From a virus (Duplodnaviria; Caudoviricetes): a DNA stretch of 64,000 bases. The notes under the pieces were generated by a model that was not told the origin of the DNA, did not search any database, and worked only from the letters and a program-made list of their open reading frames with translations. Within the stretch, counting starts at the first letter, position 1. Each line of letters begins with the position of its first letter. Where the stretch lies: the IMG/VR virus record IMGVR_UViG_3300046167_000798. The stretch is one strand, 5' to 3'. The position numbers and the translations under genes were made by a program. Shown in pieces: positions 9,292-21,589 of this stretch.

Positions 9292-11809
9292 TTAAAAGTT
9301 AAAGAACTTTTCAGCAGTTCTTTGTTCACTAATTACTTCACCCCAACCAATCGCATCATAGAAAACTTGAAGTTTATGTCCTAATTCTCTTTCAAAGATT
9401 TTATTGTGGTCAATGTAAGTAGCTAAAAAATCTTCTATCTCTGGTGGGTCATTATAACCTGTAAATGCTAATCCATCAATTCCTAATGGATTATCTTTAA
9501 GATATACCCATTTTACCTTATCACCATTTTTTAGTGGTTCATATTTGAAAGGAGCTTTGAAATGTTTTAAACAATCATTATATAAAATAGATGCCTTAAC
9601 ATGAGCAGGTGTTCCTTTCATCATTGAGAATCTTTCTCTCTTACCTTTCGGCATATACTTCTTAAGATTCTTTACTGCTGAGTTCTTTGCAATCTCAGAT
9701 GTTGGTCTGTTTACCATATTCTTTTTGAAATCTAAAACATAATCTGAAATTTCTTCTTCTGTTTTACCCTTTAGAATATCAATAAGAACAGTACCCATAC
9801 ATTCTTGGAATGCTTTTGGAAATGATGAACGTTTAACATCTAATCCTTTTACATCTAATTTATCGCAAGGTACACCATTATCTGATATAATCCATTGTGC
9901 ATATCGTTTCTTTGCTACCCACAATCCTGCTTTTGCAACATACTCTTTCTTAATCTCTAATCTATGTTTATCAACATCTACATTAAAAATCTTCTTAGAT
10001 AAGATATCATAGAAATCATTGAGGTAATCTTGCATCTCTTCTGCAATATCATTTACATAACCAGCAATTGTATCTTGGTCTTGTTCCTTCCAATTAGGAA
10101 TTCGTTTATCCATCAAAGGAACTGCTGAGAAGAATACAGAATCAGTATCAATGTATATGTTAGAATCCAAATCAGGATTACCAAGTTCCTTATTGTACTT
10201 GATGTTAGCCATATCAGCAGTTGATTTAATAACTGTTTGTCCTGTTGTGGTAACAGCGGTAGCATTATCAACATCATAGAACCTAAAGGCAGGAAGACCA
10301 AGAACACCATATAAAGAGTTAAGTAAAATCTTCTGAACCAACTGACGTTTGTGATAGAAGGCATATTTTTCTTTGTTTCCTGCTTTTCCATATTTTTTCA
10401 TCTCATCTTTATATTCAACTCGTTTTTGAAACCACAAGTCAAGGATACCAGGTATACAACCAACTGTATCTGTTCTATAAAGTACACCATTAGATGCAAT
10501 TGCGAATTTAGATTGTTCTAAATATTCTTTTAAGTTTTCTTTTGATATCGAATCTTCTCCGATATAATAAGTATCAACTTCTCCCTTTACAAACTTATTT
10601 GCATCCCAATCTTGAATCTTACCAATCTTAGTTTCAGGTGAAATGTTTACAGTCATAATGAATAGAAGGATATAGTGAAGTTAAATCCAAATCATAAATC
10701 CATTCATACTTACCAACGATTGGTGCTTTTACATAAGCTCCGATAAACTTCTCTTGGTTATTATCTCTAATAGCCTGCATTCTTTCTTGTCTATCCGCTG
10801 GTTTGTTTGGTGCAACTAAGTTTCTTCTTCTTAGATAAGTTAACATTGCTCCTTCAAGATACTTTGATGAGTAAACAAAATCTTCATATGGTACATGACC
10901 AGCATGACAAATACCTCTACATAAATCAATGAACTGAAGTTTCTTATCGAAATCCACAACTAACTCAACATCCACTAAGTTATACTCAATGAACTTATCA
11001 ATATCATCTCTGAATAATTGGTCTAAGTTTCCTTGATATTCAATCTTACCTCTACCCAATTCTATTTTAGCAACAGTATCTAATCGATAGTTTGGAAGTT
11101 CACCATAGTTATAAATCTTGTAAAGTGAAATGTAATCTAAATAAGATACACCTGCCATAAAATATCTTTTACGATAAGGTGACCAAAAACATTGTCCGAT
11201 TGGTGATAATCTGTTTGCTTGTTTCTCACCTAATAATCTTTTGATTCTATTATATAACATTGGTGTATCGAAATAATCAATATTCCAACCTGTAACGATT
11301 GATGGATTAATCATTTCATATAATTCCAAATACTTCATTAACATATCTCGTTCATCTTGAAATGGAAGAACAATACATTTATCAGTAGTTTTTTCTTTCA
11401 TACCACCTTCCTTATCAACAACTAATACCCAATATTGGTTTGTTGCTGAATCATGAAGTGCAATTGAAGTTAACTCGTTTTTAGCTTCTTCGGGATTTGG
11501 TAATCCACTTAACATCTCACACTCAATATCATATGTAAGAATAACATGACCTGTTGATGCATCATCTGAATCTGAATATAAATCAACTAAAGCTCTAGTA
11601 GTTTCAGGTACATCTGATTCAAATAAATCAGGGTCATCCTTCTTAAACTTATAAACTTTAGTTAAGGTATCTCCATAAATAGATTTATACTCACCTCTCT
11701 GAACTTTCTCATATGCATATCTTGTATATGGAAATGCAGAATATCCTCTTTGGTCATCCCAAAGATGGATTAAATTTCTTTCTCGTTGATAATAAATGTT
11801 TTGATACAA
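9292..11809 (-). CDS. Family B DNA polymerase (~838 aa, one inserted base at ~10661)
   Basis: Exonuclease YDIE, GWNIDYFD, YNLVD. Polymerase DLTSLYPSI, KILLNSLYG, YIDTDS. Deleting one T restores SLYPSIIMTVNISPET. Confidence 0.95.
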
Positions 11810-16761: not shown

Positions 16762-17025
16762 TTACGATAAATTTTCATTTAAAGCATTTGTATAAGCCAA
16801 TTCTGATTGAACTCCTACCATTCTTTGTACTTCAACACCATCTTTTTCGATGATTACTGTTGGTACAGAACGTACATGATACTTTTGAGCCACTTCGAAT
16901 TGTGAATCAATATCCACATTTTGAAAGTTAACACTTGAAAATTTATTTTTAACGTTTTCCATTAGAGGTGTTAGAACCTTACAAGGTCCACACCATTCTG
17001 CATAAAACTTCTTTACTTCTACCAT
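16762..17025 (-). CDS. trxA: Thioredoxin
   Basis: WCGPC and VRSVPT. Confidence 0.95.
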   Translation of the reverse strand: MVEVKKFYAEWCGPCKVLTPLMENVKNKFSSVNFQNVDIDSQFEVAQKYHVRSVPTVIIEKDGVEVQRMVGVQSELAYTNALNENLS

Positions 17026-17053: not shown

Positions 17054-18838
17054 TTATCCATCACACGCAACACAATCAGGGTCAACTGCTCTTGTTGCGA
17101 TATCACCTCTAAGAACAGATTCAGTTCTCATATAATACAACGTTTTAATTCCTTGTTTCCAAGCTTCCATAGTTACTTGGTTAATCCATTTCGGTGATGC
17201 AATGGAAGGGAATGCTAAATTTAATGAAACTCCTTGGTCAATGTATTGTTGTCTTACACCAGCTTGTTTAACTAAATCCATTTGATTGATTTCTTTGAAA
17301 GTTCTGAAAACATCTTTAACAGGATAAATCTTATCTCTATCTCCATTTTCGATTTCATTACAAAGTAACATTTTACCATCTAAGTAACACCACTTATCAA
17401 GTTCTTTAATACCTTGAACAGAACCACCATCGGACATTATCTGGTCCCATGTTTCTTTATTATTGATACCTGCTTTTCTTAAAACCTTTACTAACTCATT
17501 GTTCTTTCTAATGAAAGTTCCTTTTGCAGTTTGTTCGGTGAATACATTCGCCGCCCAAGGTTCAATACCAGCAGATACGTTTCCAGCTAATTTAGAGTTA
17601 CTAACTGTTGGAGCAACTGCTCTTAAGTGAGTGTTTCTAAATCCACTTTCTCTACACCAAAGAGGTTCACCCATTTCAGATGCCATATCTCTTGATGCTC
17701 TTTCTGATTCTATCTTTAACTGAGAAAAAATCTTACGAGTTTCAAATTGAGCCTCCATACCTTCAAATGGAACACCATTTTGTTGTAGGTAAGTGTGCCA
17801 TCCTAAAACTCCCAATCCTAATGCTCTACCCTTTTCAGCAGATGCAACAGAGTTTTCGAATCCTCTCATATTTTTAGCCTTTTGAATAAACTCAGAAAGT
17901 ACTCCATCTAAGAACCAAGTTGCTGTATAAACTAAATCAGTATCTCTCCACTCGTTGTATTTAGCAAGATTTACTGATGATAAACAACAAACAAATGAAT
18001 GGTTCTCATCTGTATGTAAAGTAATTTCAGAACATATGTTTGTCATATGAACTTTTAATCCATTTTTTTTGTACATTTCAGGATTAGCTTTATTGATATT
18101 CCCTTTGTACATGATGTATGGTTCACCAGTTGCTTTTCTTTTTTGTAGTAATTTTCCCCACTTTCTTCTCGCATCAGGTTCTCCTTGTTCGAGTTTTCTC
18201 ATAAACTTATCACCTACAACTGCACATTGATGTAAGTTAAGTGATTGTCTATTTACATCTCCTTTAGGTTCTCTGATTTCTAACCACTCTTCGAAATCTT
18301 GGTGGTCAATATTAAGGTTAACTGAAGCAGCTCCCCTTCTTACTGAACCTTGGTTAGTTGCAAGTATTGTAGAATCGTATATCTTAGCAAATGGTACTAC
18401 ACCATCAGATGTTCCATTTCCACTAATTACAGAACCGGCTGGTCTGATTTGGTTTATTCCAATACCAACACCACCACCATGTTTTGCAAGTAACATCAAT
18501 TCTAAGTTCTTATTTCCAATATCATATATAGAATCAGCAACATCAATACCAAAACAAGATATAGGTAATCCTCTATCAGTACCAGTATTTGAAAGTACAG
18601 GAGTTGCAAGATTTAACCAACCTTTCCAAATATAATCGAAGAATTTAGTTGCCATCTGAGGTTTGTTTAACCTTTGAGCTACTCTTGTTGCAACTCTCCA
18701 ATACGCATCTTTTGGTTTTTCACCTGGTAACAAATATCCTTTTGATATTGTTTTAACATATATTTCTGTATTTGCCCATGAAGGGAAATCTACATCAAGT
18801 TCCCAACCTAAATCTGCTCCGTAGTTTGTTTTTGCCAT
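17054..18838 (-). CDS. nrdA: Class Ia ribonucleotide reductase alpha subunit, no ATP cone
   Basis: ISCF, TNICSEI, APTVSNS, TLYYMR, C-terminal CVAC. Confidence 0.95.
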   Translation of the reverse strand: MAKTNYGADLGWELDVDFPSWANTEIYVKTISKGYLLPGEKPKDAYWRVATRVAQRLNKPQMATKFFDYIWKGWLNLATPVLSNTGTDRGLPISCFGIDVADSIYDIGNKNLELMLLAKHGGGVGIGINQIRPAGSVISGNGTSDGVVPFAKIYDSTILATNQGSVRRGAASVNLNIDHQDFEEWLEIREPKGDVNRQSLNLHQCAVVGDKFMRKLEQGEPDARRKWGKLLQKRKATGEPYIMYKGNINKANPEMYKKNGLKVHMTNICSEITLHTDENHSFVCCLSSVNLAKYNEWRDTDLVYTATWFLDGVLSEFIQKAKNMRGFENSVASAEKGRALGLGVLGWHTYLQQNGVPFEGMEAQFETRKIFSQLKIESERASRDMASEMGEPLWCRESGFRNTHLRAVAPTVSNSKLAGNVSAGIEPWAANVFTEQTAKGTFIRKNNELVKVLRKAGINNKETWDQIMSDGGSVQGIKELDKWCYLDGKMLLCNEIENGDRDKIYPVKDVFRTFKEINQMDLVKQAGVRQQYIDQGVSLNLAFPSIASPKWINQVTMEAWKQGIKTLYYMRTESVLRGDIATRAVDPDCVACDG

Positions 18839-18839
18839 T

Positions 18840-19283
18840 TTATATTAAATCTTTTTTTATTTTTTCTTTGTAGGTGTTTTCATCTATAAAACTATAAGTT
18901 CCTAAAATTTCTTCACCCTTTTTAATTTTCCTAATTGCAAGACCAGTTAAACTATCAATATTACCTAAAAGGCCTTTAGTATTAATTAAAGACCTTGGGT
19001 TTGTAAACAAAAAATTAGAATTTTTTGTTAATATAAATCTAACATCAGAATCATCATCTATAATATCACTCCCAAAGGAACGAAGTATATAAAGTAATAC
19101 ATCTTCAGGAAGTTTTTTTGCCAGTTTTAGTTTTACACTATACCAACCTGTTTTACCTTCCCATTTTGGGAAAACTTCGTCTCCCTTTTCTATATCAGTT
19201 AAAGCAAATAACCCAATTCCATGAATTTTACTAGGTTTTGCACAACTTTTTATAGAGTTAGAAATATACTCAAGTACATTCAT
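18840..19283 (-). CDS. SET-domain protein
   Basis: SKIHGIGLFA..IEKG and AIRKIKKGEEILGTY. The NHS motif is degenerate (LINTK). Confidence 0.8.
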   Translation of the reverse strand: MNVLEYISNSIKSCAKPSKIHGIGLFALTDIEKGDEVFPKWEGKTGWYSVKLKLAKKLPEDVLLYILRSFGSDIIDDDSDVRFILTKNSNFLFTNPRSLINTKGLLGNIDSLTGLAIRKIKKGEEILGTYSFIDENTYKEKIKKDLI

Positions 19284-19292
19284 ACTCTTAGT

Positions 19293-20289
19293 TTAAAATA
19301 AATCTCCCCAATCTTCTCCTTCATTAGCCTTGCTATAATCAGTAGGTCTAACTGCAAAGAAATCAGTATGGGTTAATCCACCAGTTAAGTGATAGAACCA
19401 TTCTAATTTTTCTGCTTTGTTTTTATCGAATTCAAAAATAGATTCATACCCTAATTCTTGTAGTTTAGTATTTGTTCTTGCCTTTAATGAATTCTTTTAA
19501 ATCTTCTTTTTCAAGATTTTCCAAATCTCCTTGTTCAAAAATCATATCAATAAAGTTTGTTTCTAATTGTACAATTAGTTTTGATGCTTCAATAATTGAT
19601 TCTTTACATTCATCTAATAACTCAGGATATTCATCACACATATGTCTGAATAATTGACAACCCATTTTAGAATGTAGAGATTCATCTCTTACACTCCATT
19701 TCATTTGTTGTCCAATACCTTTTAATAGATTTCTCATTTGGAATGAGTAGAGTACTGCAAAGGAAGAGTAGAGCGATACTCCTTCAGCAAATGCTGAAAA
19801 TATCGCTAAGCTCCTACCTACTTCCTGTCTTGCTTTTGGATTTGTTGCCAAATCTTCATGTTTCCATTCTGCAGTAGTTGAAGTAAGGAGTTCAAACTTC
19901 TCAGCAACTGCAGGTTCGTGCAGAAATGCTGAAAAGTCATCTAATCCTAATGTTTCATTTAAGTATGAATATGCAGTAGCATGAATAGTTTCTTGAGAAC
20001 CGAACATCATAGCCATTTGTTTGATTTCGTGTTTCGGAAACCAATCAGTAACCATGTTAGTCCAATAATCAGAAACTGCACATTCAGTTTGAGCAAAACC
20101 AAGTAAGATATTCCCCACTAGATTTTTCTCAGCTGGGGTTAAACGTTCATTCCAATCCTTTACATCACCCTGCATCGGTATTTCTGTATGTAACCAAAAT
20201 GCTTGTGCCTGTTTTAACCAACCTTCTGTATAGTAGATTGGGTATTCGAATGGTTTAAATGGAATTCTTTCTTGAAATAGTTTGCTCAT
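19293..20289 (-). CDS. nrdB: Ribonucleotide reductase beta subunit (~331 aa, one inserted base at ~19483)
   Basis: QTECAV, ETIHATAY, AEGVSLYSSF, RDESLH. Corrected tail IKARTNTKLQELGY...HTDFFAVRPTDYSKANEGEDWGDLF*. Confidence 0.95.
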
Positions 20290-20298
20290 AGTAACTTA

Positions 20299-20469
20299 TT
20301 ATTTTGATTCTTCTACTGAAGCTTTTCTGTAATCTGTTACTAGTTTCTTAACTTCACCAATTGCTTTTCTTGCTCTTGATTTAGCTGCTTTTGAACCACC
20401 ATTGTGTTCTGTTTCAAATTGAACGAATAAATCTTTAATCTGTTCAAATAGTTCTTGTGAATTTGCCAT
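20299..20469 (-). CDS. Histone H1-like (Hc1 family) nucleoid protein, 56 aa
   Basis: MANSQELF...GSKAAKSRARKAIGEVKKLVTDYRKAS. The ATG at 20469 is preferred over the ORF-track start. Confidence 0.75.
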   Translation of the reverse strand: MANSQELFEQIKDLFVQFETEHNGGSKAAKSRARKAIGEVKKLVTDYRKASVEESK

Positions 20470-20617
20470 AAAATATTTAATTATTAATTGTTTTGAAGTG
20501 ACCAATCATTTGGTCGTGTTTATAATTATAGTATATATTGAAAAACGAAATGATTTTTTTCATAATTTTTTTATCTTTTTCATTTTGTTATACTAAGTTA
20601 TTCTTTTTTAATGTGTG

Positions 20618-21589
20618 TTATAATTTTTTGATACACTTATCTAGTATATTTTTATTAGGTGTAGAATTAATATCAATCCCAAATTTGCCTGTATAATCAC
20701 AAGCTAATTCACTCCATGTAGATAATGATGTTTTAAATAATTCTCTAGTATTAGATAAACAATACAGGTCTAAAAAGTTCTTTGTATGTAATTCTAATGG
20801 AATTTCCCAACTAGATAATAAATCATAAAATTGATTTTTAAAAATCAAATTATCAGGATATCTATCAATCCATCTTTGAAAATCATTATCGTGTAAATCA
20901 TGAGAAATATAAAATTTTTGATTTGGACTTTTTTCTAATATCAAATCTATCTTTTCAAAATAAACTTCATCTTTAATAAAATCAAATTGATAAAATTTCC
21001 AAGCTGGCATATCTTTTACTTTTAATCTAATATACTCAGAAAGTATATCATGATTCCAACCTTCAAATAAATTTAAATCAATTGAATTTCCATTATTTAT
21101 TTTTACACCTCTACCTCTTCTAATATGAATACCAATACTGTTCTTAACAATATCTCTTATATCTTTATTTATATCCTTATGCTTAAACTGTAAGTTATTA
21201 ATAAATCTTTTTGTATAGTTTGATGAGAAATCAGAAATTTGTCTTTGTGTAAAATCTGTATAATAATTCTTATCTTCTAATTTTAACTTACCATTTACAA
21301 TATCTTGAACCATTTCATCAGTAATTGGTAAGTATTCATCAAAGTTAATTGTATCTGTTCTTAATACTGTTGTATTTTCTAATTCAAAACAGTTATTGGT
21401 TTCAGGATTTTGTTGAATATCAATAATAACTTCAAATTTATCATCATGTATATGATTTATAATTTTTAGTAATTCCCAACACAATAAACGATTACATAAT
21501 CCTGTATCATTTAATTGGTCTTCTCCATAGATTTCATCCAATGGTCTATAAATTCCTCTATTATTTAAATCTGCTACAACTAATTTCAT
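20618..21589 (-). CDS. GT11/GT23-like fucosyltransferase-type glycosyltransferase
   Basis: IGIHIRRG, FYISHD, DLYCLS...STWS motifs. Confidence 0.65.
   Translation of the reverse strand: MKLVVADLNNRGIYRPLDEIYGEDQLNDTGLCNRLLCWELLKIINHIHDDKFEVIIDIQQNPETNNCFELENTTVLRTDTINFDEYLPITDEMVQDIVNGKLKLEDKNYYTDFTQRQISDFSSNYTKRFINNLQFKHKDINKDIRDIVKNSIGIHIRRGRGVKINNGNSIDLNLFEGWNHDILSEYIRLKVKDMPAWKFYQFDFIKDEVYFEKIDLILEKSPNQKFYISHDLHDNDFQRWIDRYPDNLIFKNQFYDLLSSWEIPLELHTKNFLDLYCLSNTRELFKTSLSTWSELACDYTGKFGIDINSTPNKNILDKCIKKL

Follow-up and report, generated by a model that had tools for sequence, protein, structure and literature searches.

The window analysed here is a stretch of 64,000 nucleotides from a virus of the Caudoviricetes (IMG/VR record IMGVR_UViG_3300046167_000798). 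A block of genes lying entirely on the minus strand codes, in this order, for RecA, a small ORF, a 5'-3' exonuclease, DnaB, a 323-aa protein, an Hc1-like protein, the ribonucleotide reductase (RNR) subunit NrdB, a SET-domain protein, NrdA and thioredoxin. The second half of this block comprises the following features:

20470..20617, minus strand: AT-rich intergenic region 5' of the Hc1-like gene, holding a 16-nt palindrome
20469-20299, minus strand: Hc1-like gene, 56 aa, conserved Hc1 core only (PF07432)
19465..20289, minus strand: nrdB, first 274 codons (PF00268 at 186 bits), with a premature stop from a 1-nt insertion
19293..19482, minus strand: C-terminal part of nrdB in the +1 frame, within the stop-to-stop ORF 19496-19293 (phrog_86, RNR small subunit, E 1.8e-7)
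18860..19291, minus strand: variable cassette segment, with unrelated DNA in its place in close relatives (blastn)
19283-18840, minus strand: SET gene of the N-T-K variant subfamily, 147 aa, minimal SET domain (PF00856)
17054..18838, minus strand: nrdA, class I RNR large subunit, 594 aa (PF02867 and PF00317)
16762..17025, minus strand: thioredoxin, 87 aa (PF00085 at 73.7 bits)

The gene order given by a first-pass annotation of this DNA (Hc1-like, nrdB, SET, nrdA, thioredoxin) is correct, and the Hc1-like and SET genes lie exactly where it had placed them on the minus strand. It had also reported gaps of 1-28 nt between these genes; they amount to 9, 9, 1 and 28 nt when a frameshift in nrdB is read through, but the claim does not apply to the sequence as assembled, in which the nrdB frame is closed after 274 aa by a stop at 19465, the C-terminal ~60 aa being encoded in the +1 frame (to 19293). 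A DNA alignment with five relatives, all of which harbor an intact nrdB of 331 aa, revealed a single extra G in the window at 19481/19482 (GG where the five relatives have G). Moreover, the family A DNA polymerase (9292-11809) is split in the window into overlapping frames of 391 and 454 aa, whereas it is encoded by one frame of 838-852 aa in four relatives. As this is the second frameshift and affects an essential gene, the assembly appears prone to indels, and both frameshifts are most simply explained as assembly errors.

The palindrome upstream of the Hc1-like gene, GACCAAATGATTGGTC, is perfect over its 16 nt (20500-20515), lies 31 nt before the Hc1 ATG and occurs only once in the window. 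It is exactly conserved 5' of Hc1 in 11 related loci and, on these grounds, may represent an operator or an RNA (5') hairpin. A scan for sigma-70 promoters and terminators gave counts no higher than those obtained with shuffled sequences, Bacteroidota-type promoters being outside the models of the scan. The gene for the 323-aa protein (20618-21589), located between DnaB and Hc1, has a weak similarity to glycosyltransferase family 11 as its sole match; it is variable, being present in some close relatives, at times in a highly diverged form, and missing from others.

The window also codes for GroEL, a tail sheath and tail fibres, and the lineage to which it belongs is one of marine, immuto-like myophages. 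Its nearest cultured relatives are Flavobacterium myophages of the genus Immutovirus, which share the order RecA, exonuclease, DnaB, nrdB, nrdA, with no gene between nrdB and nrdA, and whose Hc1 homologue, 63% identical, is located after GroEL. The nearest virus record (G001) is an 18-kb fragment, and the locus falls outside its span.

Both domain assignments of the first-pass annotation hold, the Hc1-like and SET proteins matching PF07432 and PF00856, respectively, above the cut-offs. The Hc1-like protein scores 41.9 bits against PF07432 (cut-off 23.5), in a match spanning positions 2-56 of the 57-position model. With its C-terminus at residue 56, it contains 11 K/R versus 9 D/E (net charge +2, pI 9.1) and lacks a Lys/Ala-rich C-terminal tail. 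No tailed form was identified among the longer Hc1 proteins in databases, whose additional residues are all N-terminal and stem from over-called ORFs. The Hc1 of Chlamydia dimerises through its conserved N-terminus and binds DNA through its Lys-rich C-terminus (PMC2848022); since this DNA-binding tail is missing here, it is an extrapolation to regard the phage protein as a histone-like compactor of DNA.

The Hc1-like gene is nevertheless a core gene in two phage groups and evolves under strong constraint, with a dN/dS of 0-0.19 and protein identities of 73-100% across loci where the SET proteins are only 38-62% identical. As many as 455 metagenomic contigs encode exactly the protein of the window, close variants of which are numerous in Tara and other marine data sets. 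The peptide GGSKAAKSRARKA, which had been highlighted as reminiscent of the ARK sites of histone H3, is indeed found in the protein. However, the ARK of its S-R-A-R-K-A stretch belongs to the invariant Hc1 core A-R-K-A-I-G-E and is also present in the phage immuto, which has no SET gene, so that the conservation of ARK is not explicable by recognition by SET.

The SET protein scores 25.0 bits against PF00856 (cut-off 22.4), and a profile of its family matches the SET domain of MLL3 (E 9e-11), all three SET motifs being aligned in register. An AF2 model based on a 113-sequence alignment reached a pLDDT of 92.2 and a pTM of 0.82, and supersedes an earlier model from 11 sequences that was unusable (pLDDT 52). 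The best structural matches of this model are all SET lysine methyltransferases, namely vSET (Z 11.4; rmsd 1.7 Å over 66 residues, 29% identity), SETD8 (Z 11.1) and MLL1 (Z 10.9), and MLL1 was also retrieved by Foldseek at E 2.4e-6. The near-invariant positions of the family (S18, G22, G24, A27, I31, N101, N108, I120, E124, E125 and Y130) are all kept in the protein of the window. The GxG SAM-binding motif reads H-G-I-G-L-F-A, with G22 and G24 each present in 112/113 family members, and the C-terminal EELxxxY motif reads K-K-G-E-E-I-L-G-T-Y, with E125 invariant and Y130 found in 102/113 members. This Y130 aligns with the final tyrosine of GEELCYDY in MLL3, the Tyr of the catalytic position. 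Within the clade, pairwise dN/dS values of 0.21-0.39 indicate that the SET gene is maintained by purifying selection.

The third motif, NHSxxPN, is not fully matched: N101 and N108 are kept, but His 102 is replaced by Thr, Ser 103 by Lys, and one residue is inserted, which bears out the caveat of the first-pass annotation that the motif reads LINTK. Across the family, the His position is occupied by His in 67 of the 113 members and by Thr or Ser in 30. These 30 clusters constitute an N-[T/S] variant, mostly with the one-residue insertion, and all of them keep the Tyr. Judging from this alignment, the N-T-K change marks a whole phage subfamily and is no private defect of the window protein. The replacement of His by Thr implies that activity could be lost or altered, and an H324L mutant of SUV39H1, affected at this very His, is reportedly catalytically dead. 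The phage protein could accordingly be a pseudoenzyme that lost catalysis together with the NHS His and now binds, or acts as a decoy for, a partner that contains lysine or is related to SAM, as the two substitutions, the insertion and a Pfam score barely above the cut-off might suggest. We regard this as rather unlikely, because there is almost no variation within the variant subfamily in the GxG motif, the two Asn, the EE pair or the Tyr of the catalytic position, and because Thr or Ser stands at the His position in as many as 30 clusters under purifying selection. Furthermore, the SAM contacts in the NHS motif are made largely through the backbone. That the SET protein of the window is an active enzyme appears plausible from its motifs, and somewhat more probable than the contrary.

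The family is large and almost entirely viral. A profile search of 1.84 billion representative proteins returned 762 hits at E <= 1e-3 (counted as clusters at 50% identity), mostly of 130-150 aa, and the nearest clusters in the ESM Atlas are 100% viral. Only 14 weak relatives were detected with an 11-row alignment in cellular genomes (one per prokaryotic species), none of them in Bacteroidota. A tblastn search of the SET protein against 50,697 deposited phage genomes gave nothing at E <= 0.01, PHROGs contains no family for either the SET or the Hc1-like protein, and a literature search retrieved no paper on phage SET proteins and no experimental work on the minimal SET family.

The genomic neighborhood of the SET gene was compared across 55 related viral loci anchored on Hc1, which is present in all, and spanning nrdB to nrdA. 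SET is found in 18 of them, alone in 8 and together with a methyltransferase in 10; a further 6 harbor the methyltransferase only, and 31 have neither. In L070, L079, L085, L071 and other loci, the hypervariable nrdB-nrdA junction accommodates a MazG-like protein, a class I methyltransferase of 196 aa, this methyltransferase plus SET, a fusion protein, or SET alone. The fusion, in L085, is a 370-aa protein combining a methyltransferase and a 2OG oxygenase, and the MazG-like protein, of 103 aa, occupies the slot in L070, the only locus without SET and methyltransferase whose slot content was inspected. Alignment of the window with L070, L073 and L074 by blastn shows flanks that are 89-92% identical, between which the 432-nt segment 18860..19291 is replaced by a 303-nt MazG-like segment; homology is lost right after the nrdB stop and regained 21 nt before the nrdA start. 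In addition, the SET proteins of relatives are only 38-62% identical, versus 84-95% for NrdA. SET is a swappable, fast-diverging accessory cassette of the nrdB-nrdA slot.

In three loci (L043, L044 and L046), SET lies at another junction, between Hc1 and nrdB. These loci belong to a sister lineage that has kept DnaB and Hc1 (73-75% identical) and harbors a different RNR pair, which is only 32-38% identical and has a longer nrdB ORF. A representative protein of 328 aa (P0023) is a direct fusion of methyltransferase and SET, and the 213.6-kb genome G043 (the record of locus L131), estimated to be 100% complete and belonging to the lineage of the window, carries two SET genes (at about 70.7 and 154.8 kb), of which one occupies the nrd slot and the other lies ~84 kb away.

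The position between nrdB and nrdA, and the presence of a MazG-like nucleotide pyrophosphohydrolase as an alternative occupant of the same slot, could suggest that SET acts on the RNR subunits or thioredoxin encoded alongside and thereby modulates the dNTP supply. This is extremely improbable in our opinion: the SET family also has members that are not part of nrd operons and are found in Hint/AXH-2OG oxygenase contexts or next to a class I methyltransferase, the SET gene of L043 stands upstream of an unrelated RNR pair, and lysine methylation of RNR has, to our knowledge, no precedent.

The relationship between SET and Hc1 was also considered from the side of SET, by analysing 47 viral loci anchored on this gene. 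The closest of them display the order DnaB, Hc1, nrdB, (196-aa class I methyltransferase), SET, nrdA, thioredoxin, and L043, L044 and L046 the order DnaB, Hc1, SET, followed by the different RNR pair. Three loci contain the methyltransferase and SET without nrd genes or Hc1, and the remaining ones have neither nrd genes nor Hc1 nearby. A second recurrent context of the N-[T/S] subfamily (L017-L022 and L165-L168) consists of a 750-770-aa Hint/AXH protein, a 45-47-aa gene, SET, a 188-196-aa gene and a 2OG-Fe(II) oxygenase, again without Hc1. The 45-47-aa genes located 5' of distant SET homologues were considered as Hc1 candidates and rejected, as they show no likeness by eye and a narrow Hc1 HMM found nothing there; likewise, the 196-aa genes beside distant SET homologues bear no relationship to the class I methyltransferase found in the nrd slot.

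Among the closest relatives of the window, L070, L073 and L074 have a 100% identical Hc1 protein, with NrdA 95% and DnaB 94% identical, and lack SET. Since identical Hc1 proteins occur in genomes with and without SET, Hc1 does not co-vary with SET, which argues against a functional pairing as writer and substrate. SET was not found anywhere in five close-relative records of 39-71 kb, the whole record of L070 contains none, and the complete genome of immuto harbors Hc1 and no SET. A second phage group, with the order clamp, RFC, Hc1, zinc-ribbon gene, p150, p90, MazG, (SET), exonuclease, has a different SET protein of 101 aa with a canonical NHS motif. This group includes loci with both Hc1 and SET (L114, L172, L173 and L175), with Hc1 only (L141, L148, L143 and L104) and with SET only (L174).

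Elsewhere, Hc1 is nearly absent from SET-bearing phages. It scores above the Pfam cut-off in none of 25 other records harboring the SET family of the window, two complete genomes included, and it is present in 3 of 40 records of the 101-aa subfamily. Two of these three belong to the second group, and in the remaining one, a phage of 298 kb, more than 200 kb separates the two genes. Outside both groups, Hc1 is thus present in only 1 of 63 SET-bearing viral records (0/25 and 1/38); these absences are partly uncertain, most metagenomic records being fragments, and among the near-complete genomes of the 101-aa set Hc1 is found in just one of six. The presence of SET and Hc1 across related phages is therefore uncorrelated, an outcome that the first-pass annotation had listed as refuting its hypothesis, with SET in 18 of 55 Hc1 loci, a mixed second group and 1/63 elsewhere.

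That hypothesis was that the two genes form a writer-substrate pair, in which the phage SET protein would methylate the phage Hc1-like protein or Hc1-family proteins of the host (for example at K35 of ARK) and tune the compaction of the nucleoid or of phage DNA. If true, it would represent a chromatin-style writer-substrate module in a bacterial virus. Such a pair would be consistent with the location of both genes in one tight operon with predicted co-transcription, with SET following Hc1 at a distance of no more than 1.5 kb in three distinct arrangements, and with the closest solved structure being that of vSET, which acts on the ARKS motif of H3. It would also have a precedent in Chlamydia pneumoniae, in which cpnSET bound and methylated Hc1 (PMC3980110). 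This precedent stands in part: methylation of Hc1 fragments by cpnSET is documented (PMC3980110, PMC2904774), but NUE did not methylate full-length Hc1 (PMC2904774), and the case is contested. In the phages, SET comes and goes independently of Hc1, the two SET subfamilies reside almost entirely in phages without Hc1, the ARK motif is family-wide and kept in the SET-less immuto, and the Hc1-like protein has a net charge of only +2 and no Lys-rich tail. We conclude that the proposed pair is unsupported, and consider it quite improbable. A complex prediction with SET, SAM and Hc1, for which alignments of both proteins were supplied, gave a score of 0.00, which counts neither for nor against binding.

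The proximity of SET and Hc1 still exceeds what a naive random model would produce, so a weak functional or regulatory link may exist. For example, SET could be an optional regulator superimposed on a core function of Hc1, methylating the invariant ARK lysine or host homologues, a possibility to which we give little credence. The proximity could also result if only a few junctions in the module for replication and nucleotide metabolism are permissive and well expressed.

The probable explanation, in our view, is that of an accessory phage SET cassette next to a core Hc1 gene, the two not forming a working pair, with SET being a protein methyltransferase whose target is probably a host protein. 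The Hc1-like gene is a strongly conserved core gene of the lineage, and SET one of several interchangeable nrdB-nrdA cassettes, all predicted to be transcribed with the operon; under this scenario, the two genes would adjoin through the position of a variable slot and not through a joint function. The SET protein would bind SAM via the GxG motif and the Asn positions and, by means of the conserved C-terminal Tyr, transfer a methyl group to a lysine of its protein target. Its catalytic activity and the class of its target are inferred here, while the comparisons establish the domain and its fold, the retained motifs, the purifying selection, the behaviour as a cassette and the independence from Hc1. 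SET is often found beside protein-modifying enzymes (class I methyltransferase, 2OG-Fe(II) oxygenase), pointing towards modification of host proteins, and the target would more likely be a protein of the host, or some phage protein different from Hc1.

The existence of a large, almost entirely viral SET family raises the question of which role a lysine methyltransferase plays in a virus whose bacterial hosts have no histones, and Hc1, an attractive answer, is removed as unsupported. The natural variants with and without SET, which have near-identical flanks, provide ready-made comparisons.

Some elements of this locus are already known from other viruses, namely PF07432 proteins in large aquatic phages and minimal viral SET proteins in chloroviruses. 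A PF07432 "histone H1-like" gene of unknown function was reported in moraphages, which are large aquatic phages, with no mention of SET domains (PMC12619734). With respect to moraphages, the PF07432 gene occupies here a defined operon position and is a core gene under strong purifying selection. Similarly to Chlamydia, where cpnSET/NUE coexist with Hc1/Hc2, the window combines SET and PF07432 proteins in one genome. However, chlamydial Hc1 has a Lys-rich DNA-binding tail (PMC2848022) that the phage protein does not have, and the phage SET and Hc1 genes vary independently.

The best structural match, vSET (A612L) of Paramecium bursaria chlorella virus 1, is likewise a minimal, virus-encoded, stand-alone SET protein. 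It has a canonical NHS motif and methylates eukaryotic H3K27, whereas the phage protein has N-T-K with a one-residue insertion and a helical insert of ~50 residues, and belongs to a virus of a bacterium without histones. Finally, the RNR locus of phages is a hot spot of insertion, as exemplified by mobE of T4, located between nrdA and nrdB. As at the mobE site, the junction of the RNR subunits takes up foreign genes in the phages studied here while the flanks stay conserved; unlike in T4, the occupants of the slot are enzymes (SET, class I methyltransferase, MazG-like protein) and not homing endonucleases.
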